Below are positions 1 through 10,792 of a stretch of DNA of 10,792 bases, one piece after another (positions within the stretch are counted from its first letter, which is position 1; each line of letters opens with the position of its first letter). This DNA is from a virus (lineage: Duplodnaviria; Heunggongvirae; Uroviricota; Caudoviricetes). Both the position numbers and the translations under genes were made by a program. Below the pieces are notes generated by a model, which saw only the letters and a program-made list of their open reading frames with translations, had not been told where the DNA came from and did not search any database. The stretch lies in the IMG/VR virus record IMGVR_UViG_2690315922_000018, positions 1-10,792 of that record. One strand, written 5' to 3'.

Positions 1-1236
1 CTACGATAACCGCGCATTCAACATGGCTACCTGTTCGTCGTTCATGTCATCAATCCACATACCGTAAATTTCATACACCATCTGCGCAGTTTCATGCCCC
101 ATCTGGCTGGCTATAAATGCCGGGTTCGCTCCTGCCGTCAACAGCCAACAGGCAAAAGTATGCCGCGTATGGTACGGATTACGGCGGCGAATACCAGCAC
201 GTTTTACTGCTGCATTCCATCTCGCCCCCAAACTGCTTACCGAGTAATAAGGTTTCTGTTTTCCGTTACACATCCTGGGCATGAAAACAAAATGCAGTTT
301 TTGCTTTTCGGTTCTGCCATACTCCCGATGATAAAAGGTGATTTCGCTTTTGCGATAATGTCCGGTCAGTTTGTATTGCTCCTTCAGTGCTTCAAGAGCA
401 GGCTGCAGTAATGTTACCGTTCGGATCCCGGCATTTGTTTTTGGAGGACCGAACATATCAAGTATCGTCAGGTTTCTTCTGACATTCACAATTCCCTTCT
501 CGAAATCCACATCCTCCCACGCCAGGGCTGCCAGTTCCCCGTGACGAAGCCCGGAGTAAACAGCAAATTTCCACAAGTTTTGACTCTGTCCTTTTTCTCT
601 TTCCATTAATGCATTGAATTCTGTTTTAGATAACGGATCAGGCTTTATTCTGTTTCGCTGTAATTTTTTTACTCCTTCAAATGGTTTGGTTGATATAAAT
701 CCCGACTGATACGCAAAACGTAACAACGAACATAGCAGGGCGATATAGTTATCAACTGTGCGCACGGTTCTTCCTTTTTTGTTGGCTCTTGGATTATCCT
801 GGTAAAGCGTTTCTCCATGCAGCAGTTCATTTCGGTAGCTTAAGATATCGCTATAACGAATATGTGATATTGGGGTACTCTCGCAAATGATTATTCTGAG
901 AGTTTTTAATTGTGATTTTGTTTTCTTCATTGTGTTTGTTGTTAACTCTGTCTCTTTAATTTTTGTCCAGATATCACAAAGCTCCCCGAATGTTTTTATG
1001 ACCCTCGTTGTCACCATTTTTGCCCCGGTATTGGACTGGGGAAAACGTCTTAAATACTCGAACTCGCCGGAATTTATTTCGTGAACTATCAATGCTCTTA
1101 AACTCCCGGCCTTTTTAATGTTACTGTTAGTAACCTCCCAGCCTTTCAATGTTTCCCGACATCGTTTCCCTCGAAACATGAACCAGATGCGAATGTATTT
1201 ACCTCGAATCTCGACACCTGTTGGTAATTTAGACAT
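1..1236 (-). CDS. intR: Tyrosine-type site-specific integrase, Rac prophage IntR family (411 aa)
   Basis: Full-length ORF from ATG at 1236..1234 to TAG at 3..1. N-terminal sequence MSKLPTGVEIRGKYIRIWFMFRGKRCRETLKGWEV closely matches the Rac integrase as I recall it; the C-terminal region carries the tyrosine-recombinase R...HxxR...Y pattern (HTRHTFACWLL ... MVYEIYGMW). It is the terminal gene of the leftward operon, as in lambdoid phages. Confidence 0.9.
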   Translation of the reverse strand: MSKLPTGVEIRGKYIRIWFMFRGKRCRETLKGWEVTNSNIKKAGSLRALIVHEINSGEFEYLRRFPQSNTGAKMVTTRVIKTFGELCDIWTKIKETELTTNTMKKTKSQLKTLRIIICESTPISHIRYSDILSYRNELLHGETLYQDNPRANKKGRTVRTVDNYIALLCSLLRFAYQSGFISTKPFEGVKKLQRNRIKPDPLSKTEFNALMEREKGQSQNLWKFAVYSGLRHGELAALAWEDVDFEKGIVNVRRNLTILDMFGPPKTNAGIRTVTLLQPALEALKEQYKLTGHYRKSEITFYHREYGRTEKQKLHFVFMPRMCNGKQKPYYSVSSLGARWNAAVKRAGIRRRNPYHTRHTFACWLLTAGANPAFIASQMGHETAQMVYEIYGMWIDDMNDEQVAMLNARLS

Positions 1237-1237
1237 A

Positions 1238-1453
1238 TTATGAGTCTTTGATAAACTGATTTATCTTCGGATAGTTGTACCAGATAATCCCTCGCTTGCT
1301 GTCTGGCTTACCTAAAGGAGATACTCGTTTGAAGTGGAGACCTTCCACCCAACAGTTCTGGCGATATGCTTCAATTTGTCTGGCCCCCAGACCAGTACGA
1401 AGCATCAGACCGTATTCAACCATCCACTCTTCATTAAAGATCACTTGTGCCAT
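1238..1453 (-). CDS. ydaQ: Excisionase-like protein, YdaQ/XisR family (71 aa)
   Basis: ATG at 1453..1451 with a GAGGTGA-type SD upstream; the ORF-track start at 1477 is TTG. Stop TAA at 1240..1238 lies 1 nt from the int start. The product [30 protein letters not shown]... matches Rac YdaQ as I recall it, in the xis position immediately upstream of int. Confidence 0.75.
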
Positions 1454-1552
1454 CGCATCACCTCTGGCGGGCGACAATATTAGACAGAAATTGACGCCCG
1501 GCGTTGATTATTAATAATCAGCTATGAAGTTTTAATTTGAATACAATGCAAC

Positions 1553-1753
1553 TTACCAAGACTGAAGTTTCTCGCAATTAAAATTCATCAGTTTTACTTT
1601 TTGCTCTCTGGAAACGCCTGCTTCTTTTTTCCCTGAGAGCATTTTTTCGCATTCTGATTTCGTTAGTTTAGATTTTGAATATCTTGTCCAGTTAGTAGGA
1701 GTACCACCTTCCTTTTCAATTGTGGCGGTAATTTTATACATAGATGCCTCCAT
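1553..1753 (-). CDS. ydaC: Small conserved prophage protein, YdaC-like (DUF1187)
   Basis: ORF 1553..1813; the likely start is the internal ATG at 1753 ([17 protein letters not shown]...), but the ATG at 1813 cannot be excluded and neither has a strong SD. Position between ralR and xis matches Rac synteny. Confidence 0.5.
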   Translation of the reverse strand: MEASMYKITATIEKEGGTPTNWTRYSKSKLTKSECEKMLSGKKEAGVSREQKVKLMNFNCEKLQSW

Positions 1754-1964
1754 TAATATTTTCAGCGGTTCGTTTATTCCATCTTTCGAGGGCTTCTTTC
1801 TCACTTCCACCATAGCCAGTTCGGGATTCGCATCCGTTGCATTTTGCCCGGTAATACCCTGAAATGGCTTTCACCGTTACAGATGGACAACCACAAAACG
1901 GACATGGTTTGACTTTTGTGTATCGCTCTGGTTTTTCTCCTGTGAGCTTTGTGGCTGCGCTCAT
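1734..1964 (-). CDS. ralR: Restriction-alleviation protein, Lar/RalR family (about 76 aa)
   Basis: Contains the CPFCG ... C..C ... ERWNKR pattern typical of the Lar family. Preferred start is ATG 1964..1962 (GGGGAG SD about 8 nt upstream), which forms an ATGA overlap with the exo stop; the alternative ATG at 1970 has the SD too close. Confidence 0.7.
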
Positions 1965-2641
1965 TTCCATTGCTCCCCAAATACAAAACCAATTTCAGCA
2001 AGTGCCTCGTCCATTTTTTCGATGAATTCTGGCACCATCTCGTCAAAACTCGCCATGTACTTTTCATCCCGCTCAACCACGACATAATGCAGGCCTTCAC
2101 GCTTCATACGCGGGTCATAGTTGGCAAAGTACCAGGCATCTTTTTGCGTCACCCACATGCTGTACTGCACCTGGGACATGTAAGCCGACTTTATGGCCCC
2201 GAAACCACCGAGCCGGAACTTCATGAAATCCCGGGAGGTAAACGGGCATTTCAGTTCAAGGCCGTTACCGTCGTTGCATAAGCCATCGGGAGAGCAGGCG
2301 GTGCGCATAGTCTCGTCACGATAGATGATCGGGGATTCAGTAACATTCACGCCGGAAATGAACTCAAACAGGGCTCTGGCGTCGTTCTCGTACTGTTTTC
2401 CCCAGGCCAGTGCTTTAGCGTTAACTTCCGGGGTCACTCCGGTGCAGACCTCAGCCAGCAGGGTGTGGAAGTAGGACATTTTCATGTCAGGCCATTTCTT
2501 TCCTGAGCGGGGTTTTGCTATCACGTTGTGAACTTCTGAAGCTGTGATGACGCCGAGCCGTAATTTGTGCCACGCATCATCCCCTTGTTTAACAGTTCTC
2601 ACGTCGATTCCTGTACGTTGCAGGATAATGTCAGGAGTCAT
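1961..2641 (-). CDS. exo: Lambda-type exonuclease (Red alpha / Exo, YqaJ fold), 226 aa
   Basis: Near-identical over its full length to phage lambda Exo as I recall it ([15 protein letters not shown]...[20 protein letters not shown]...[11 protein letters not shown]), same length of 226 aa. Start ATG 2641..2639 overlaps the bet stop TGA 2640..2638. Confidence 0.95.
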
Positions 2642-3417
2642 GCTGCCACCTTCTGCTCTGCGGCTTTCCGTTTCAGGAATCCAAGAGTTTTCACTGCTTC
2701 GGTCTGCGTCAGTTCTGATGATGCGCGAATGTCGCGGCGAAGTATCTGGGAACAGAGCGGCAATAAGTCGTCATCCCATGTTTTATCCAGGGCGATCAGC
2801 AGAGCGTTAATCTCCTGCATGGTTTCATCGTTAACCGGAGTGATGTCGCGTTCCGGCTGACTTTCTGATGCGGTATTTTCGACAATGCGCTCGGCTTCAT
2901 CCTTGTCATAGATACCAGCAAATCCGAAGGCCAGACGGGCACACTGAATCATGGCTTTATGCCGTAACATCCGCTTGGGGTGCGACTGCCACGGCCCCGT
3001 AACTTCTTTGCCTTCGCGGGTTTTGAATGGTTCGCGGCGGCACTCATCCATCCACTCGGTAACGCAGATCGGATGATTGCGGTCCTTGCGATAAATCCGG
3101 CATGTACAGGATTCATTGTCCTGCTCAAAGTCCATACCATCAAACTGCTGGTTTTCATTGATGATGCGGGACCAGCCATCAACGCCCACCACCGGAACGA
3201 TACCATTCTGCTTATCAGGGAAGGCGTAAATCTCTTTCGTCCACGGATTAAGACCGTACTGGTTGGCGACGATCAGCAGCGCGATGAATTGCGCATCGCT
3301 GGCATTGCCTTTAAATGCTGTCTGGCGAAGAGTGGCGATCAGTTCCTGCGGGTCGACAGTATCCATGCCGACACGTTCAGCCAGCTTCCCGGCCAGCGTT
3401 GCGAGTGCAGTACTCAT
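2638..3417 (-). CDS. bet: Lambda-type single-strand annealing protein (Red beta / Bet), 259 aa
   Basis: Near-identical to lambda Bet as I recall it ([19 protein letters not shown]...[42 protein letters not shown]...), about 2 aa shorter. ATG at 3417..3415. Confidence 0.95.
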
Positions 3418-3422
3418 TCGTT

Positions 3423-3722
3423 TTATACCTCTGAATCAATATCAACCTGGTGACGCGCAATGGTTTCAACCATGTACCGGATGTGTTCTGCCATGCGCTC
3501 CTGAAACTCAACATCATTATCAAATGCGCGGCTAATTGCCTGTTTACTGGCGCCGTGGCGTTGCAAATGGTCGATGCAGAGCGATTCAAACAGGTGCTGG
3601 GGCAGACCCTTTTCCAGGTCGCCCGCCAGCTCTGTTTCTTTTTCTTCGCGAACGATCTGCTGGTAGTGGCGTGACCATGCCAGATCTTCAATGCGATCAA
3701 AAATCAGGCATGTGCTCATCAT
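3423..3722 (-). CDS. gam: Lambda-type Gam (RecBCD inhibitor), short form of about 99 aa
   Basis: C-terminal 85 aa nearly identical to lambda Gam as I recall it (...[40 protein letters not shown]...[26 protein letters not shown]). First ATG is the tandem ATG ATG at 3722/3719; the ORF-track start at 3755 is a TTG. The start overlaps the 3' end of the upstream 663-aa ORF (stop at 3699..3697). Confidence 0.9.
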
Positions 3723-5688
3723 CCGCCACTCCAAAATTTTCAAGCCTGTTGGCAATCATCATTGCAATACCCGGAATTAATGGCGCTGAGGCTATACCCG
3801 CAGGATTCGCACATAAACCGTAAACCGCCGCAATCACCACTTGTCTTTTCCAGTCGAGTTTTTCTAATGATGAAGCTGCTGCTTCACCAGTTTCATCACT
3901 GCAATCGTGATGCTGATCGCTGCCAGCGTTCTCCTTGTGCAGATGTTTATTGTCTTCCATTTTCTCCGAATCTTTTTCCTGAGATTCATCCATATTTTCT
4001 TCATTAAAGGTTTCCTGATACGTTGCGTCTCCCATCACTGCACCACAGTCAGGGCAGCTATTTCCTCCAGCCTGACCGCAGGCGGTGTAAATTTTTTCTG
4101 CTTCCTGTTTCGCTACTGGCTCAGGTTGTTTCACATCCGGGCTGGTTTTTTCAGTTTCTGGTGTGTTTTGTTCTGTTTCTGGCTTATTCTGGTACACAGA
4201 ATCGCGGGTCTGGATCCCCTTGACCCATTTCGGATCGTTCGGGTCGCTAATTCCTTCAACAAACTCTCCGTGACAGGCAGCCAGTAATTTGTCTGCATCG
4301 ACAGGATTTTGGGGCGGAATGTTTTTCCGGGCTTCATGGAGTTCTGCCCTCAGTTCCTGATATTTCGCATCAACAGAATTTACCTGTGGCTGAGCATCCA
4401 TCGACTGCGTGTTCTGATGATGTTCAGTTGTATCCGGTTCCACTGTTTCAGGCGTTGCCTGTTCATTTGCCATTGCGCCAGATGGTTGTGGTTTTTCTTC
4501 ACCTTGTTTTCCTTCTTCTGTATCACGCTGTGGCATTGGGGCTGAGGAACGGCCGCAAGCAATATCCACGATTTCCTGATCAGGATTGGCGTGATTGGTT
4601 TCAATCAGCACCTTGTTCAGATATTCAGTGACGTGCGCGTGAATAACCTCAATACCGATAGGTGCTTCTTTCACGGATGCAACCACGATGGCGCGGGAAT
4701 AATCCAATCCCCCAGGCATAGCAGTGAATATGTCACGGAAAACAGAAAAGGGCGGCTTATTCTCTGCGATGATTTCATCAATACGTTTAGCGTGTGCCGG
4801 ATGAAGGTTATAAATATCAACATCCATTGAACGGGCCAGAATGCCAGTCGCAACATCGCGTGCCAGCGAAGCCTGATCGTGGACGAAATCTTCACCGCGA
4901 TCAGTTTTGTTCCCGCCGCCAGCATTAGCACCGGAGGGCGTGCGGGTGATGCGTGAAACACGATTCCCTTTCATCCACTCTTTTGTCAGCAGACCTCGAT
5001 CGGTGTAGTCGGTGCCCAGGTATGCTTCGAAAAAAGCAGTCATCAGTCCCAGATCTGAATTACCAGGATTAGGGAAAACTTTGTCAGTGTCACGAACCAG
5101 TTTGTGGAGATCTCGAATCTCAAGCAGTTCGAGTTGTGCTGTTTTATTTGAGATAGCCAGCGCTGTAACTGCGGGAAGTTCTTCATCCCGTGCAATGTGT
5201 AATGCCTGGAGTTCGTCGCGTGAAACGTGCGTTACTGGATTTTCACTGCCGTGTTGTGCCAGCCAGCGAACAGGTAATTCCTGACCTGAAATCGGCAGGA
5301 GCATGCTCTCCTCAATCTCAGTCATATCTTCGCCGTTGACGTTGGCATTGTCAGTGCTGGCTGGTTTGTCCTGTGCAGAGTGTGATGGCGCGATAAATAC
5401 CATTGTAATGCCATCTTCCCCGCCTTTTTCGTAACGGTTGCAGAATTCCGTATCAAATACGCCTTCTGGCGGAAGGTCATCAACAACGGGCAAATTTACG
5501 CGAACAGGTTTTTTAAAATCATCTTCGTCGTAGCCTGCATCGTCCATTGCAGCAATGCAGCGTGAAACCGCAACAGAAAGTTTTTTTGCCTCTGTCCAGA
5601 AGAAGCCGCCTTTGATGCCGAGGCGTTTTCTTGCGCCCTCATTTTTCGCGTCGCAATGTAACGCAAAATTTTGTTTGTCAGTGCTCAT
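3697..5688 (-). CDS. Large RecE (exodeoxyribonuclease VIII) N-terminal-region-like protein, 663 aa, with a divergent C-terminal tail and no evident nuclease domain
   Basis: Uninterrupted 663-codon ORF, ATG at 5688..5686 with a GAGG about 10 nt upstream. It sits immediately downstream of racC, which is the recE position in Rac. Long stretches ([101 protein letters not shown]) match what I recall of the non-catalytic N-terminal region of RecE; I cannot fully separate recall from priming by the sequence. The last 130 aa carry a Cys cluster ([12 protein letters not shown]), an acidic low-complexity run and a roughly 30-aa hydrophobic segment. Confidence 0.6.
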
Positions 5689-5756
5689 TGTTTTTTAACC
5701 TCAACTCAGATTAAAATTTAGTGCGAGTGATGAATAAATGTCCCAGGTTTTTCACT

Positions 5757-5789
5757 CAGGCCTGTACACTGTGCAGGCTTTCTTTTTTT
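5757..5789 (+). terminator. Putative rho-independent terminator on the plus strand (8-10 bp GC-rich stem followed by TTTCTTTTTTT)
   Basis: Stem 5759-5766 (GCCTGTAC) pairs with 5770-5777, followed by a T-rich run 5778-5789. On the minus strand the same hairpin is not followed by a U-run. Lies between the racC stop and the 663-aa ORF start. Confidence 0.35.
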
Positions 5790-6064
5790 CAAATTTCACC
5801 TTTTAATTTCATTGCAATCAGAGTTGCCAGAAACTCAGCTTTTTTTTCTGCTGGCAGATTATTTCCAATGTGCACCAGGCACATTTTTTTGACGCCTTCG
5901 TGAAGTGTTTTAACGTTGCCTGATGGACCGTCGATATCAACCACAGTGAATGGGGTTTCTTTATTTTCTGTTTTAATCACGTAGCCAATACGCTTTCCGT
6001 CCAGATTGACCTCGTGAACAATGTCATCAGTAGTTACAACAGTGGCTTCATAATTGGTAATCAT
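5789..6064 (-). CDS. racC: RacC (Rac prophage small protein), 91 aa
   Basis: ATG 6064..6062 with AAGGAG SD 7 nt upstream; product MITNYEATVVTTDDIVHEVNL.GKRIGYVIKTENKETPFTVVDIDGPSGNVKTL... matches Rac RacC as I recall it. The ORF-track N-terminal extension to 6112 is probably not used. Confidence 0.8.
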   Translation of the reverse strand: MITNYEATVVTTDDIVHEVNLDGKRIGYVIKTENKETPFTVVDIDGPSGNVKTLHEGVKKMCLVHIGNNLPAEKKAEFLATLIAMKLKGEI

Positions 6065-6138
6065 GTTTTTCTCCTTAATTAAGGTTGAGCGAATCCCTGC
6101 CATTGCTGGCATAAATTCAGTTTCGAATAGTCAGTTAA

Positions 6139-6309
6139 TTAAAGTTCGTGTGCCATCTGGTCTTTTTCGGCACAAGTTTCACTGCAATATTTTCTTGGTT
6201 CGTCTTTTGATAAAGTTCCGTGCATGAAATGAAGCATTCTTTCAATAGTTTTGCTTTCTTCAACGTCTTTTTTGCAAAGGTGGTAAGCACATTTTATTTT
6301 CTTATCCAT
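6139..6309 (-). CDS. ydaE: YdaE-like small Cys-rich (putative zinc-binding) protein, 56 aa; not in the ORF track
   Basis: Hand translation of the minus strand: ATG 6309..6307 -> [56 protein letters not shown], stop TAA 6141..6139. The start overlaps the kilR stop (TGATG). Position between kilR and racC matches Rac. Confidence 0.7.
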   Translation of the reverse strand: MDKKIKCAYHLCKKDVEESKTIERMLHFMHGTLSKDEPRKYCSETCAEKDQMAHEL

Positions 6310-6530
6310 CACCATGACTCCGCTTTTACAGGTAAACCATCACTACCGAGGAAGACTTTAATCATGCAGTCAGAAATGCATGTTTTTGTAGTCAGGCTAC
6401 GAATATAAAGTTTTCGCTTTTTTATATTGTTTGCCGAGGCGATATATGTCCGGCCTTCATGAAGAACATAATCGCCAGGAGTTACACACTGACGTGGTAT
6501 TTCATCAGTTCCGAAGTGATGAGTAATCAT
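6309..6530 (-). CDS. kilR: KilR-like killing protein (Rac KilR is an FtsZ inhibitor), 73 aa
   Basis: ATG 6530..6528 preceded by GGAGA with 6-nt spacing; the ORF-track start at 6542 lacks an SD. Product ...[67 protein letters not shown] matches KilR as I recall it. Confidence 0.8.
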
Positions 6531-6702
6531 AATTATCTCCATTTTTACAAATGAATTTTGTCGATGCGGTGCCTGGTGCCTCCAGGTGACGTTAACCAGT
6601 TAACAATTAACGCCGGATACAGAGAATCCACCCATAACACTGTTTTTAGCTTTAACTGTTCCGCGTGCGCTTAGCCGCATTCACCGCATCACAAAATTCA
6701 CT

Positions 6703-6751
6703 TTAAAAAGGGCGGACATCAGCCAAACTTCAAGAAAAAACTGATGCCGCC
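6703..6751 (-). terminator. Terminator-like hairpin on the minus strand (imperfect 11-bp stem, long loop, then CUUUUU)
   Basis: 6711-6722 GGCGGACATCAG pairs with 6741-6751 CTGATGCCGCC (one bulge). On the minus strand the stem is followed by CTTTTTAAAG (plus 6701-6710). The 18-nt loop is atypical for an intrinsic terminator, hence low confidence. Confidence 0.3.
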
Positions 6752-6969
6752 AGGACTACACACAGCAATGTCGTTATTTACAACCGGAGGCGCACTCCCA
6801 CCATTTAAATTTAACAGACAAGACCGACTCTTTATGGATACCGGAAGTGCGCCTTCGTGTTGTGCCCGGTTTTATTTCACCACCTCCGGGCTTCGGTGGT
6901 CTCGGCTATACCCCTACAGCGAGAGCTTGTGTTAACATTTCAATACCCTTACAGTTGAGAGTTATTGAT

Positions 6970-7458
6970 ATGTTGGATGTATTTACTCCATTGTTGAAAC
7001 TTTTTGCTAACGAGCCACTCGAAAGACTTATGTATACGATTATCATTTTTGGTCTCACTCTCTTGCTGATACCGAAAGAGTTTACTGTCGCATTCAATGC
7101 TTATACTGAAATACCTTGGCTCTTTCAGATTATCGTTTTTGCCTTTTCTTTCGTGGTCGCCATTTCCTTCTCAAGATTGCGAGCACATATTCAAAAGCAT
7201 TATTCATTACTACCAGAGCAACGAGTATTGCTTCGTTTATCTGAGAAAGAAATCGCTGTATTTAAAGATTTCCTTAAAACAGGAAATCTTATTATCACTT
7301 CTCCTTGCCGTAACCCGGTTATGAAAAAATTAGAACGGAAGGGCATCATTCAACATCAGAGTGATAGCGCAAACTGTTCTTATTATCTCGTCACCGAAAA
7401 ATACTCCCATTTTATGAAGTTATTCTGGAACAGCAGGAGTAGACGTTTTAATCGTTAG
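6970..7458 (+). CDS. sieB: Superinfection exclusion protein B (SieB), 162 aa, membrane protein
   Basis: ATG at 6970 (GAGAG 9 nt upstream). Product MLDVFTPLLKLFANEPLE.LMYTIIIFGLTL.LIPKEFTVAFNAYTEIPWLFQIIVFAFSFVVAISFSRLRAH... has two hydrophobic segments and matches Rac SieB as I recall it. The only plus-strand gene in the left half, as in Rac. The ORF-track extension back to 6847 is not supported. Confidence 0.85.
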   Translation: MLDVFTPLLKLFANEPLERLMYTIIIFGLTLLLIPKEFTVAFNAYTEIPWLFQIIVFAFSFVVAISFSRLRAHIQKHYSLLPEQRVLLRLSEKEIAVFKDFLKTGNLIITSPCRNPVMKKLERKGIIQHQSDSANCSYYLVTEKYSHFMKLFWNSRSRRFNR

Positions 7459-7610
7459 CTTACTGTGTGCTTCTCCAACCATCGGCGCGCACCAGTTTCG
7501 GTTTTAAATGTTTTGCTTTTGGTATACGTCATAGCAGTGAACGTTCCATCTTGGTTGGGGAACACGCCGCACACCAGGGATTCGTTGTTGCCGAGGTCGA
7601 TTTTTTGCAT
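7455..7610 (-). CDS. ydaF: YdaF-like small protein, 51 aa; not in the ORF track
   Basis: Hand translation: ATG 7610..7608 -> MQKIDLGNNESLVCGVFPNQDGTFTAMTYTKSKTFKTETGARRWLEKHTVS, stop TAA 7457..7455. Its stop overlaps the convergent sieB stop (TAG 7456-7458). Synteny with Rac ydaF. Confidence 0.65.
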   Translation of the reverse strand: MQKIDLGNNESLVCGVFPNQDGTFTAMTYTKSKTFKTETGARRWLEKHTVS

Positions 7611-7621
7611 TTTGGGAACTC

Positions 7622-7756
7622 TCACATCTTGTTGTTGCGGATAGAGGCTTCTGCTTGCCAGAGATCCCAGTCGTTGCTACGTAAAGCCTGCACAGCCTGG
7701 CTGTAAGTGATACCGCAACAATCCATCAAATACTGAACTACTTCGTAATGCACCAT
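7622..7756 (-). CDS. ydaG: YdaG-like small protein, 44 aa; not in the ORF track
   Basis: Hand translation: ATG 7756..7754 preceded by AAGGGAGAG SD -> MVHYEVVQYLMDCCGITYSQAVQALRSNDWDLWQAEASIRNNKM, stop TGA 7624..7622. Lies 11 nt upstream of ydaF, so the two are probably co-transcribed. Confidence 0.65.
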   Translation of the reverse strand: MVHYEVVQYLMDCCGITYSQAVQALRSNDWDLWQAEASIRNNKM

Positions 7757-7936
7757 CTTATCTCTCCCTTTAACGCCGGGTGGCGGAACGTTTTATCTAC
7801 TGCGCTTTGTATCAATCAACAACTGCCGTCATGTTCGTATGCCTCAGGCTGGCTACTTAGCCCTGTTCAGTGGCTGGATAACTCGAGGTATTGTCCTGCC
7901 GTTCTCTGGTGGGGCGTTGTTTGGATATGACAAATG

Positions 7937-7976
7937 CTCACATATCGTGAGTGATTTGTCAACTCAATATGTGAGC
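7937..7976. promoter_or_regulatory. Operator-like palindromes (OL-type) upstream of ydaG-ydaF, with a consensus TTGACA -35 on the minus strand
   Basis: 7937-7951 reads CTCACG-N4-GTGA on the minus strand, the same motif as the operators between the repressor and cro-like genes; 7963-7975 is a second near-palindrome CTCAATATGTGAG. A perfect TTGACA lies on the minus strand at 7962..7957, but no good -10 follows at 17 bp. Confidence 0.4.
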
Positions 7977-8003
7977 AATGTTGTTTTTGGATTTTTGATG
8001 GAC

Positions 8004-8036
8004 AAAAAAAGCCCTCGCTAATAGCGAGAGCTTTTT
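8004..8036. terminator. Bidirectional rho-independent terminator (A7 - 9-bp stem, 3-nt loop - T5) downstream of the repressor gene
   Basis: A-run 8004-8010, stem GCCCTCGCT (8011-8019) pairing with AGCGAGAGC (8023-8031) with one mismatch, T-run 8032-8036. On the minus strand it follows the repressor stop (8065..8063) by about 27 nt and is itself followed by U7. Confidence 0.65.
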
Positions 8037-8062
8037 GATTGGAATCGAGGGAGATTAAAGGT

Positions 8063-8452
8063 TTAGGAGGATTTCTTCTGTTGCCTGCTTCTTAGATATT
8101 TTTCCACATACTCATCAAGCTCTTGAAGACGGATTTCGAACAGATCAATCATGCGTGCTTGTTCTGAACCCGGGAGCTGATTAAACAGCTCTAGCATTTT
8201 TTTCTGGTTATCATTTAACCATGAGTACGTGTTTTCCTGTTCACCGAACATTAATTCTGCGGGGGAAATGCCTAGTACTTGGCCGAGGATGATCGCATCC
8301 TCAGCCCCCACACTCCTGGTGCCAGCTTCGTAGTTAGCAATACGAGAAGAACCTGACCAACCACATAGTTTTGCCAGGTTTCCCATACTTAATCCTCGAT
8401 TTAGGCGAGTGGCTTTTAGGCGCTCGCCTATTTGTTCTGCAATCGTTTTCAT
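8063..8452 (-). CDS. Prophage immunity repressor, XRE-family HTH (CI/RacR analogue), 129 aa, no S24 peptidase domain
   Basis: ATG 8452..8450; the ORF-track start at 8557 is TTG and the 35-codon extension would cover the operator region. N-terminal HTH (LKATRLNRGLSMGNLAKLCGWSGSSRIANYEAGTRSVGAEDAIILGQVLGISPAELMFGE) and a short helical C-terminus. Divergent from the cro-like gene and followed by a terminator. Sequence is not recognised as K-12 RacR, so it is probably a different immunity allele. Confidence 0.8.
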   Translation of the reverse strand: MKTIAEQIGERLKATRLNRGLSMGNLAKLCGWSGSSRIANYEAGTRSVGAEDAIILGQVLGISPAELMFGEQENTYSWLNDNQKKMLELFNQLPGSEQARMIDLFEIRLQELDEYVEKYLRSRQQKKSS

Positions 8453-8465
8453 AGTTCCGATTTTA

Positions 8466-8527
8466 TCACGATGTGTGAAATTGGCGGTACTCACGTATCT
8501 GTAGTTGATCTCGCTCACGAAGTGTGA
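8466..8527. promoter_or_regulatory. Three-site operator array (TCAC-N5-GTGA type) with divergent promoters between the repressor and cro-like genes
   Basis: Sites at 8466-8478 TCACGATGTGTGA, 8491-8503 TCACGTATCTGTA (imperfect) and 8515-8527 TCACGAAGTGTGA, spaced 25 and 24 bp centre to centre. Candidate rightward promoter: -35 TTGATC 8505-8510, -10 AATAAT 8527-8532 overlapping site 3, then AGGAGG SD 8539-8544. Candidate leftward -10 TAAAAT at 8465..8460, only 8 nt from the repressor ATG. Confidence 0.5.
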
Positions 8528-8549
8528 ATAATAGAAACAGGAGGTAGTG

Positions 8550-8792
8550 ATGAACAAAATTTCAACATATCGAAAACAGCTTGGGCTGTCTCAAAGACAA
8601 CTTGCTGTTCAGTTAGGGTGGATACAAAGCCGACTGGCAAATTACGAAGCAAATTTTCGTACCCCTGGACTAGAGGAGTGCAGAAAAATTGTTTCTACCC
8701 TTAATCGGCTTGGCGCTCATTGTGGACTTGACGATGTATTCCCCCCAGACGGTAAGCATAGCGAAAACAGCATAGGAGCGGTTGATTCATGA
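8550..8792 (+). CDS. Cro-like / YdaS-position HTH regulator, 80 aa
   Basis: ATG 8550 with AGGAGG SD 5 nt upstream (the ORF-track GTG at 8547 is too close to the SD). HTH motif LGLSQRQLAVQLGWIQSRLANYE. First gene of the rightward operon, divergent from the repressor. Stop overlaps the ydaT-like start (ATGA at 8789-8792). Confidence 0.75.
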   Translation: MNKISTYRKQLGLSQRQLAVQLGWIQSRLANYEANFRTPGLEECRKIVSTLNRLGAHCGLDDVFPPDGKHSENSIGAVDS

Positions 8793-9211
8793 AAATCAGG
8801 CATGAGCACATCGAATCAGTGTTGTTAGCCCTGGCAGCCGAAAAAGGGCAGGCGTGGGTCGCTAACGCAATTACTGAAGAATATCTGCGCCAGGGGGGCG
8901 GCGAATTGCCCCTGGTGCCTGGCAAGGACTGGAACAATCAGCAGAATATCTATCACCGTTGGTTGAAAGGTGAAACGAAAGCCCAAAGGGAAAAAATTCA
9001 GAAACTGATCCCTGCGGTTCTGGCAATTCTTCCGCGCGAGCTGCGTCACCGACTCTGCATCTTCGATACCCTGGAACGCCGTGCATTACTGGCGGCGCAG
9101 GAAGCGTTGAGTACGGCAATTGATGCGCATGATGATGCAGTCCAGGCCGTTTATCGTAAAGCACATTTCAGCGGCGGCGGGTCGCCCGGCGACTCTGTCG
9201 TAGTGCATTGA
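8789..9211 (+). CDS. ydaT: YdaT-like protein (proposed CII-like regulator family), 140 aa
   Basis: ATG 8789 with AGGAG about 10 nt upstream. N-terminal MKIRHEHIE... and C-terminal ...GGGSPGDSVVVH resemble Rac YdaT as I recall it, with the same length and the same position after the cro-like gene. Confidence 0.7.
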   Translation: MKIRHEHIESVLLALAAEKGQAWVANAITEEYLRQGGGELPLVPGKDWNNQQNIYHRWLKGETKAQREKIQKLIPAVLAILPRELRHRLCIFDTLERRALLAAQEALSTAIDAHDDAVQAVYRKAHFSGGGSPGDSVVVH

Positions 9212-9255
9212 TTGAAATTAATCGTGCCGGACTGTTTTGTTCGGTATCAGTTAAA

Positions 9256-9676
9256 TGTAACGCTTACAGCGTTACAAGGTGAAAACAATATGGCTTCAAA
9301 CTGGATAAAGCTCGAGGTTATTACGCCGGATAAGCCGGAAATATTCAGGCTTGCTGAGATTCTGAATATTGATCCAGATGCCGCATTAGGGAAAGTCATT
9401 CGCTTCTGGGCATGGGCGGATCAACAAATGATAGACGGTAACGCAGAGTGTAACGCTCGCGGCGTTACAAAAAGTGCAATAGATCGCATCACTTTTATGG
9501 CTGGTTTTGCTGATGCGTTAATTCAGGTTGGATGGCTGGTCGAAAATAACGGTGGGCTTTCTCTACCTAACTTTGAACGTCATAACGGAAAAAGCTCTAA
9601 AAAACGGGCGATTACAAACGAGAGGGTTACAAAAATACGCGAACTGAAACGAAAAGGTAACGCTGCCAGCGTTACA
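9256..9676. repeat. Three dispersed palindromes TGTAACGCT-N3-5-AGCGTTACA plus extra GTTACA(A) half-sites; candidate iterons or origin
   Basis: 9256-9276 TGTAACGCTTACAGCGTTACA (perfect 9-bp arms), 9449-9469 TGTAACGCTCGCGGCGTTACA, 9656-9676 GGTAACGCTGCCAGCGTTACA; further half-sites GGTAACGCA 9437-9445, GGTTACAAAAA 9625-9635 and ATTACAAA 9612-9619. Confidence 0.45.
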
Positions 9677-10078
9677 CAAACGGATCAAAAAGCGTTACCA
9701 GAGGAAGAGGAAGAGGAAGATATAAATACTGATCTCCCCCTAAATCCCCCTCGCCAAAAACGAGCATCTAAAAAATTCGAGCCGGAGGCTATTGAGTTGC
9801 CCGATTGGTTGCCGGAAACACTCTGGCATGAGTGGGTCCGGTTCAGGCAGGCATTGCGAAAACCGATTCGAACGGAGCAGGGCGCTAACGGGGCGATACG
9901 GGAACTGGAAAAATTCCGCCAGCAGGGTTTTACCCCTGAGCAGGTGATTCGACACAGCATCGCCAACGAATACCAGGGCTTGTTCGCGCCGAAAGGCGTT
10001 CGACCGGAGACGTTGCCTCGGCAGGTTAACACCGTCTCGTTGCCGGACAGTGCGATTCCGCCAGGCTTCAGGGGGTAA
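9290..10078 (+). CDS. ydaU: YdaU-like putative replication protein (DUF1376 family), 262 aa
   Basis: ATG 9290 with AGGTGA 7 nt upstream; the ORF-track start at 9212 is TTG. Position immediately upstream of the DnaC-like gene matches Rac ydaU. Contains an EEEEEED acidic stretch and the palindromic repeats listed separately. Confidence 0.6.
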   Translation: MASNWIKLEVITPDKPEIFRLAEILNIDPDAALGKVIRFWAWADQQMIDGNAECNARGVTKSAIDRITFMAGFADALIQVGWLVENNGGLSLPNFERHNGKSSKKRAITNERVTKIRELKRKGNAASVTQTDQKALPEEEEEEDINTDLPLNPPRQKRASKKFEPEAIELPDWLPETLWHEWVRFRQALRKPIRTEQGANGAIRELEKFRQQGFTPEQVIRHSIANEYQGLFAPKGVRPETLPRQVNTVSLPDSAIPPGFRG

Positions 10079-10084
10079 CGAACC

Positions 10085-10792
10085 ATGAAAAATATTGCGA
10101 CAGGCGGCGTTCTGGAACGTATCCGCAGACTGACCCCACCACATGTAACCGCCCCATTCAGAACGGTTGCGGAGTGGCGCGAGTGGCAACTTGCTGAAGG
10201 CCAGAAACGTTGCGAGGAGATCAACCGCCTGAATCGTCAGTTGCGGGTGGAAAAAATCCTGAATCGCTCTGGCATCCAGCCGTTGCACCGCAAATGCTCG
10301 TTTGCGAATTACCAGGTGCAGAACGACGGCCAGCGATACGCGTTAAGTCAGGCGAAATCCATCGCCGATGAACTGATGACCGGGTGTACAAATTTTGCGT
10401 TCAGCGGAAAACCTGGTACCGGGAAGAACCATTTAGCGGCAGCTATCGGAAATCGCCTGCTGAAAGATGGCCAGACAGTGATTGTGGTTACTGTGGCTGA
10501 TGTTATGAGTGCCCTGCATGCCAGCTATGACGACGGGCAGTCAGGCGAAAAATTTTTGCGGGAACTGTGCGAAGTGGATCTGCTGGTTCTTGATGAGATT
10601 GGCATTCAGCGCGAGACGAAAAACGAGCAGGTGGTACTGCACCAGATTATTGATCGACGGACAGCGTCGATGCGTAGCGTGGGAATGCTGACAAACCTGA
10701 ACTATGAGGCCATGAAAACATTGCTCGGTGAGCGGATTATGGATCGCATGACCATGAACGGCGGACGCTGGGTGAATTTTAACTGGGAAAGC
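10085..10792 (+). CDS. ydaV: DnaC-like replication ATPase / helicase loader (YdaV family), 3' end truncated by the window
   Basis: ATG 10085 (GGGGG 9 nt upstream), open in frame to the window end, 236 codons, hence absent from the ORF track. Walker A GKPGTGKNHLAAAIG and Walker B DLLVLDEIG; position after ydaU as in Rac. Confidence 0.85.
   Translation, partial: MKNIATGGVLERIRRLTPPHVTAPFRTVAEWREWQLAEGQKRCEEINRLNRQLRVEKILNRSGIQPLHRKCSFANYQVQNDGQRYALSQAKSIADELMTGCTNFAFSGKPGTGKNHLAAAIGNRLLKDGQTVIVVTVADVMSALHASYDDGQSGEKFLRELCEVDLLVLDEIGIQRETKNEQVVLHQIIDRRTASMRSVGMLTNLNYEAMKTLLGERIMDRMTMNGGRWVNFNWES

Follow-up and report, generated by a model that had tools for sequence, protein, structure and literature searches.

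The DNA analyzed here (the window: 10,792 bp, positions 1 to 10,792 of IMG/VR virus record IMGVR_UViG_2690315922_000018) is the early region of a Rac-like lambdoid prophage. It carries a replication initiator gene (9290..10078, + strand) whose 262-amino-acid product comprises a predicted N-terminal winged-helix domain (residues ~10-95), a disordered linker (97-159) and, at the C-terminus, a domain of three helices that is both DnaT C-terminal-like and YdaU-like. Palindromic repeats lie within and just upstream of this gene, and they are considered here as putative initiator-binding sites and a candidate origin of replication. The palindrome GTAACGC-N5-GCGTTAC was found three times with no mismatches (9257-9275, 9450-9468 and 9657-9675), against an expectation of 0.01, and three copies were reached in 0/200 shuffles; no further copy with up to two mismatches was present in the window. 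Including flanking bases, the units are 21 bp long with arms of 8-9 bp and start at 9256, 9449 and 9656, giving start-to-start spacings of 193 and 207 bp. These counts confirm the statement of an earlier note on this DNA that three such palindromes are improbable by chance. The 7-mer half-site occurs 11 times on both strands of the window (0.86 expected), with 8 of the 11 falling within 9257-9698. Beyond the palindrome arms, two half-sites are exact (9438-9444, +; 9692-9698, -) and two carry one mismatch (gene position +226 = 9515, GCGTTAA; gene position +335 = 9624, GGGTTAC), so that the at least three further half-sites claimed earlier are reached when degenerate copies are counted and fall to two when only exact ones are.

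Site 1 (9256..9276; TGTAACGCT-TAC-AGCGTTACA, an exact match) occupies the non-coding spacer between ydaT and the initiator gene (rep). Its 3' end lies 14 nt from the ATG at 9290, in agreement with the earlier placement just upstream of the start codon, and it abuts the Shine-Dalgarno sequence AAGGTG. The site 2 cluster (9437..9469) consists of half-site GGTAACGCA (9437-9445) followed 12 bp on by palindrome TGTAACGC-TCGCG-GCGTTACA (9449-9469), and codes for a loop at residues ~49-60 (D49-T59) between helices of the winged-helix domain. The extra half-site of this cluster is a 12-bp duplication (GGTAACGCAGAG followed by TGTAACGCTCGC, window 9437-9460), an 'ECNA' insertion that adds four residues relative to most family members and is common to loci of Shigella, E. 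coli, Serratia and Rouxiella (L164-L168). The site 3 cluster (9656..9699), the proposed origin core, combines palindrome GGTAACGCT-GCC-AGCGTTACA (9656-9676) with a half-site GCGTTAC (9692-9698) in the order -> <- (23-bp step) <- (arrows give half-site orientation); the segment 9656-9698 codes for residues 122-136, inside the disordered linker. The closest complete phage, Escherichia phage vB_EcoS-673R7 (37.8 kb; 96.6% protein identity), has its copy of the gene annotated as 'DNA replication protein O' and carries the palindrome at the same three places only.

The two in-gene palindromes encode the same peptide motif, as had been pointed out before (CNARGVT, residues 53-59; GNAASVT, residues 123-129), and both fall in peptide predicted to be unstructured (loop 49-60 and linker 120-159). 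A codon test was used to separate constraint on this peptide from constraint on the DNA, with 40 non-redundant loci (≤85% identity) picked by peptide pattern alone and the rest of the same genes as background. At the sites, Gly was encoded by GGT in 36/37 cases (background 65/319), Asn by AAC in 40/40 (102/159), Ala by GCT in 35/40 (101/469) and Val by GTT in 40/40 (127/316), with Fisher p values from 2e-7 to 3e-21, and GC content is 55-68% in many of these loci. The repeats are also read in more than one frame: GCGTTAC gives x-V-T in one (97 cases) and A-L-P or A-L-L in another (74 cases), and GTAACGC gives x-N-A or V-T-x. Site 3 accordingly encodes GNAASVT in the window versus VTLAAL, in the other frame, in Klebsiella and E. 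coli phage relatives (L002/L003). Because synonymous positions are frozen and a single 7-mer is read in two frames, the constraint on the palindromes, as judged from these alignments, acts on the DNA and not on the peptide. Nucleotides were kept even where the peptide differs, the opposite of the peptide-only conservation that the earlier note had named as speaking against functional sites.

Conservation was assessed in 87 loci (294 kb with 1.5-kb flanks), made up of 80 loci from a genome scan that used a tight 6-sequence alignment of the N-domain, six phage loci and the window. A viral-contig scan with a 9-sequence N-domain alignment returned loci only 76-100% identical (nearly all 96-100%), which are uninformative for conservation. 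The hosts of the genome-scan loci include Pseudomonas, Burkholderiales, Xanthomonadales, Planctomycetes, Verrucomicrobia, Serratia and others. At up to one mismatch, palindromes in the 87 loci were confined to gene positions -92..-31 (6, the window among them), +149..161, near codon 50 (75), and +338..392 (57), with a sole exception at +650 (1) and none elsewhere in the 294 kb. The upstream, site 1-type palindrome, at -31/-32 or -41/-43, was restricted to enterobacterial relatives, apart from a single Stenotrophomonas locus with the site at -92. Phage relatives that have only the N-domain in common with the window retain GTAACG...CGTTAC at the same two gene positions; among them are Klebsiella ST11-OXA245phi3.2, E. 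coli TL-2011b and ZX5, Xanthomonas CP2, Pseudomonas VW-6S and Ralstonia YL1. The genes upstream of the initiator differ among palindrome-bearing relatives (methylase, KilAC antirepressor, hypothetical proteins), and the hosts belong to different phyla.

The association was also tested in reverse, by searching viral contigs with the DNA pattern alone, two palindromes 170-200 nt apart, which returned at least 119 contigs. The N-domain was encoded in all of those examined (80/80), again with the sites in the gene positions given above, and the 795 kb of pattern-only contigs contain just two palindromes outside these positions. These two are exact copies, GTAACGCTGCCAGCGTTAC, one in each of two contigs (L204, position 1368; L251, position 1561), ~4.5 kb from the initiator gene, and may represent a second remote site or a chance occurrence.

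Within clusters, the half-sites are tightly phased. The usual order of the linker cluster in the family is -> -> <- <- at steps of 12/12/11 bp, compared with 12/23 bp in the window; individual steps were 12 bp for -> <- (48 cases), 12 bp for -> -> (45 cases) and 11 bp (29 cases) or, as in the window, 23 bp (9 cases) for <- <-. Directly beyond the last half-site lies a polypurine tract, separated from it by 1-2 nt in 42/57 loci. In the window this candidate unwinding or loading region (9700..9734, + strand) consists of AGAGGAAGAGGAAGAGGAAGA (9700-9720, 21 nt) followed by TATAAATACTGATC, with the sequence TATAAATA directly 3' of the 21-nt tract, and its translation is the acidic inter-domain linker EEEEEEDINT. 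Most lineages have AGAGAAGAGAAGAGAAGA... where the window has AGAGGAAGAGGAAGAGGAAGA, and the (AGAGAAG)n run is kept though the peptides differ (REEKRRE versus EEEEEE). No homopurine/homopyrimidine run in the window is longer than the tract at 9700-9720; the surroundings of the tract are a local minimum of duplex stability, at the 96th percentile among least-stable 40-bp windows, and a strong A/purine skew extends across 9580-9720. The earlier note had taken the 190-210 bp dispersal of the repeats as pointing away from an origin, a view that does not hold up given that the two-cluster layout, an upstream cluster and a linker cluster beside the polypurine tract, is conserved family-wide. Two GATC (Dam) sites, 9683-9686 and 9731-9734, flank the last half-site and the tract and are not conserved outside enterobacteria.

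In diverged relatives, the two-cluster layout is kept while a variant motif appears in both clusters together and is rare elsewhere in the locus. One locus (L143) carries GTTGCGC/GCGCAAC, with 8/8 copies within +149..+372; two others (L149, L163) carry GTCACGC, a further one (L152) CTAACGG, and Ralstonia phage Raharianne (L012) GTAGAC. Phages epsilon15, SPN1S and BUCT711 (L010, L006, L005) carry GTCCGC/GCGGAC, with the upstream cluster moved to +55..+101. In this epsilon15 group, the clusters at +55..+101 and +334..+378 are arranged -> -> <- <- at 11/13/22-bp and 11/13/11-bp steps, respectively, and the second abuts AGAGAAGAGAAGAGAAGA; the GTCCGC repeats are a candidate origin, apparently unannotated, of these phages. 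Across the comparisons, the N-domain is the sole constant partner of the palindromes, and the motif changes along with it.

The initiator itself is composite. Residues 139-262 are 80% identical to E. coli K-12 YdaU over 124 residues, the only part aligned by BLASTP, whereas residues 1-138 had no Pfam (E≤0.01) or NCBIfam match, nor any match in Pfam at E≤1 for nine family members, and a profile comparison (hhalign) did not relate the N-domain to the K-12 YdaU DUF1376 domain (probability 0.1%). The earlier designation of the gene as 'ydaU-like' thus applies to the C-terminal part and not to the N-terminal 138 residues. Over its full length (residues 1-262, profile positions 1-277/277) the protein matches phrog_2509 'replication initiation protein' at E=2e-89, a function that is annotation only, and its C-terminal part matches the 'O-like' phrog_678 and 'primosomal protein' PHROGs. 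A sequence search of the PDB gave the DnaT C-terminal domain as its sole match (2ru8/9zbt), aligned to residues 170-262 including the terminal SxPDSxIPPGFRG motif at E=9e-5. An AlphaFold model had a mean predicted local distance difference test (pLDDT) score of 69, with domain cores at 76-92, and predicts for the N-domain a helix-turn-helix with a beta-hairpin wing (H29-48, H61-68, H73-80, E84-86, E89-91), i.e., a winged-helix topology; the loop encoded by site 2 was of low pLDDT, with residues 53-57 below 50. Foldseek comparison with BFVD returned mostly unnamed viral proteins, along with weak 'replisome organizer' and 'DUF1376' matches (E ~1e-4) that were generic, had low template-modeling (TM) scores and were not used as evidence of membership. 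The N-domain family is large, with 6,545 clusters at 50% identity for E≤1e-3 and 4,156 for E≤1e-10, and the initiator gene is usually annotated 'hypothetical protein' in E. coli genomes.

Overall, the palindromes are probably iteron-like initiator-binding sites that constitute the phage origin, a reading to which we assign a probability of roughly 0.7. The earlier note had raised a lambda-like origin inside the initiator gene as a candidate, and the comparative evidence is strongly supportive of that suggestion. The gene product would be a lambda-O-type initiator whose N-terminal winged-helix domain binds the palindromes, and the origin proper would be the cluster at 9656-9698 together with the adjoining polypurine tract at 9700-9720, in linker-coding DNA of the Rac-like prophage. 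Initiator dimers would occupy the GTAACGC-N5-GCGTTAC dyads as well as the phased half-sites next to them, the neighboring polypurine/A-rich stretch would then be distorted or opened, and the DnaT-like/O-like C-domain would recruit the DnaC-like loader encoded downstream with host DnaB. Site 1 (9256-9276, enterobacterial lineages only) and site 2 (9437-9469, family-wide) may serve as auxiliary initiator sites, either in a looped or higher-order complex over ~200-400 bp, in throttling transcription of the initiator-loader operon, or in both. We infer these roles of sites 1 and 2, as well as unwinding at the polypurine tract and binding by the gene's own product; the last is inferred mainly because the motif co-varies with the N-domain while neighboring genes and hosts vary.

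This arrangement resembles that of phage lambda, as lambdoid origins, with their iterons and AT-rich tract, are situated midway through gene O (PMC7466680). As in ori-lambda/gene O (and in P22, 933W and P27), the window has dyad-symmetric repeats inside the initiator gene at the segment coding for the inter-domain linker, a strand-asymmetric tract after the repeats that may be easily distorted and a helicase-loader gene immediately downstream, and the C-terminal part of the initiator matches an 'O-like' PHROG. Extra iterons add residues to O, an Stx-phage O having 13 of them (PMC7466680), much as the 12-bp 'ECNA' duplication in the window adds both a half-site and residues. In contrast to lambda O, the window N-domain has no detectable sequence relation to the Phage_rep_O N-terminal domain, which was not encountered among Pfam hits. 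Lambda has four ~19-bp tandem iterons, whereas the window system has dyads and half-sites phased at 12/12/11 bp in the family; these form two family-wide clusters ~200 bp apart, one of them in the region coding for the DNA-binding domain, plus a third, upstream cluster in the window lineage. The classic AT-rich region is replaced by a polypurine (GAAGAG)n tract, and the loader is DnaC-like and not of the lambda P type. By analogy, the system would work like ori-lambda/O, yet its DNA-binding domain places it outside the lambda O family and its N-terminus outside YdaU/DUF1376.

The closest genomic counterpart is the ydaU-ydaV/oriJ region of K-12 Rac, a prophage whose origin, oriJ, is reported to be active (PMC3945230). 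It has the same genomic position and gene order (racR, cro-like, ydaT, initiator, ydaV) and, in YdaU, the same type of C-terminal domain, but an unrelated N-domain, DUF1376. A K-12-type ydaU (L174, 942-1799) has its own linker repeat at gene positions +355..+520, TGTTCAAAC/GTTTGAACA in 4-6 copies, beyond which come a stretch rich in AT and the shared ...CCCCCCCTAAATCCCCCC; these repeats are plausibly the oriJ iterons of K-12. The Rac alleles of the window and of K-12 have the look of origin-specificity modules that were swapped, with the junction near ...CCCCCTAAATCCCCC (window 9731-9751). Two-domain initiators or organizers with a winged-helix-type N-terminal domain, and with binding repeats and an unwinding tract inside the gene, are also known from Gram-positive phages, as in SPP1 G38P/oriL and lactococcal phage Rep. 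The window initiator would share these traits with such replisome organizers but has no match to Pfam Phage_rep_org_N, and the repeats and hosts differ. DnaT (primosomal protein I) has in common with the initiator only the C-terminal, single-stranded DNA-binding domain and, unlike the role proposed here for the window protein, is a host restart factor without sequence-specific origin binding.

Several points weigh against the origin reading. The putative unwinding region is polypurine with ~42% GC, is not strongly AT-rich and is not the least stable DNA of the window; as evidence for an unwinding element, the stability profile is only moderate. Two or three clusters lie ~200 bp apart where lambda has four tandem iterons, and part of the system may be regulatory. 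The sequences in the codon test are related (85% de-duplication), so its p values overstate independence. K-12 oriJ comes from a Rac allele whose N-module is a different one, so it gives no direct evidence for the window sequence, and a literature search, which left many subscription papers outside its reach, found no description of this initiator family or its origin. In the most serious alternative, the initiator-bound sites are purely regulatory, as autoregulatory operators or roadblocks for the rep-ydaV operon, and the true origin lies elsewhere. Inverted repeats in iteron plasmids are commonly autorepressive, the dyad symmetry is typical of operators, site 1 lies directly 5' of the ribosome-binding site, and the clusters are spread over ~400 bp and are not in tandem. 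However, a promoter scan found no sigma-70-like promoter at site 1 and none overlapping any other palindrome site, site 1 is missing in most of the family, and the linker cluster meets the conserved polypurine tract at a fixed distance of 1-2 nt, a junction that would be needless for a roadblock. Its position at the inter-domain linker also fits characterized lambdoid origins (PMC7466680). A purely regulatory function is therefore considered unlikely, and a regulatory role would in any case be compatible with an origin role, as both could hold together.

It is far less probable that the sites are operators for another regulator (YdaT/CII-like, Cro-like, RacR-like or a host factor), a suggestion made earlier as operator-like sites for a regulator and favored by the position of ydaT immediately upstream and by a near-match to the YdaT operator 30 nt 5' of site 1. 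The published YdaT site, TTGATT-N6-AATCAA, is unrelated to GTAACGC (PMC9986795), the same palindromes stand beside unrelated upstream genes in hosts of different phyla, and only the N-domain accompanies them and changes with the motif. No sigma-70-like promoter was found at site 1 either, and the suggestion is not supported. Selection for an RNA or single-strand hairpin (acting in mRNA stability, translational pausing, antisense termination or as a cruciform) in place of a duplex protein site appears less credible again. Each palindrome does fold, with an 8-9 bp stem at -7.6 to -8.9 kcal/mol and z scores of -3.2 to -5.1, and on the minus strand site 3 (9657-9675) is followed by the T-rich run CTTTTCGTTT and scores terminator-like for antisense transcription. 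That run is not kept in other lineages, however, and what has been kept across phyla is the sequence of the arms, with no compensatory variation. Isolated and direct-repeat half-sites at 12-/11-bp steps are likewise conserved though unable to pair as simple hairpins, and the region 9200-9800 gave no Rfam match at E≤1. The idea that the repeats are chance or a by-product of coding constraint on a repeated G-N-A-x-x-V-T peptide draws on the two window sites that encode the same peptide in the same frame, and is effectively refuted: synonymous positions are frozen far beyond the codon-usage background, one 7-mer serves two frames and different peptides, site 1 encodes no peptide at all, the other two sites map to segments predicted to be unstructured, and the chance expectation is 0.01.

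A broader proposal can be advanced tentatively, and we hold it to be possible but somewhat doubtful. Here, the initiator-bound origin of the window would represent an undescribed and very widespread class of phage origins tied to the unannotated winged-helix domain (~4,000-6,500 clusters at 50% identity, from Enterobacteria to Planctomycetes/Verrucomicrobia). The class would have two obligatory clusters of dyads or 12-bp-phased half-sites ~200 bp apart, one within the coding sequence of the DNA-binding domain, that cooperate by looping, and melting or loading would take place at a near-universal (GAAGAG)n polypurine tract in place of an AT-rich element. Because the GTAACGC motif is almost invariant, initiators of very distant phages might be able to stand in for one another, and specificity would occasionally have switched in a concerted way.

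Should the origin reading hold, sequence could be used to predict the origins of thousands of phages and prophages in which the initiator is at present listed as 'hypothetical protein', and the alternative N-terminal and repeat modules that Rac-like prophages carry on a common YdaU-type C-domain would be accounted for as origin-specificity swapping. The initiator family is also a clean natural case of DNA-binding-site constraint overriding codon choice within a gene, and its concerted motif switches could be used for studying the co-evolution of initiator and origin specificity. For phage biology at large, the layout is an expected one and brings no new principle, while the variant itself is new and very widespread.

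The neighboring genes are those of a Rac-type early region. Directly downstream of the initiator lies the ydaV-like gene for the DnaC-like helicase loader (10085..10792, + strand, cut by the window end), which matches Pfam IstB_IS21 (9e-20) and Bac_DnaA (1e-8) as well as phrog_50 'DnaC-like helicase loader' (1e-81). Upstream are genes for a RacR-like repressor (8066-8557, - strand), a Cro/YdaS-like protein (8547-8792, + strand) and a YdaT/CII-like regulator (8789..9211, + strand; Pfam YdaT_toxin, 5e-11; phrog_163, CII-like), the last of which is context here and not the proposed binder; ydaU is not mentioned in the 2025 YdaT paper. Near-matches to the YdaT operator number five in the window against 1.0 expected, among them 8782-8799 at the ydaS/ydaT junction, 9208-9225 at the ydaT stop codon and 1504-1521 near the integrase end. 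Between ydaT and the initiator gene, a stem-loop CCGGAC-TGTTTT-GTTCGG (9228-9245) has no T-run and so is not a classic terminator; its counterpart in vB_EcoS-673R7 is a perfect inverted repeat, CCGAAC...GTTCGG.

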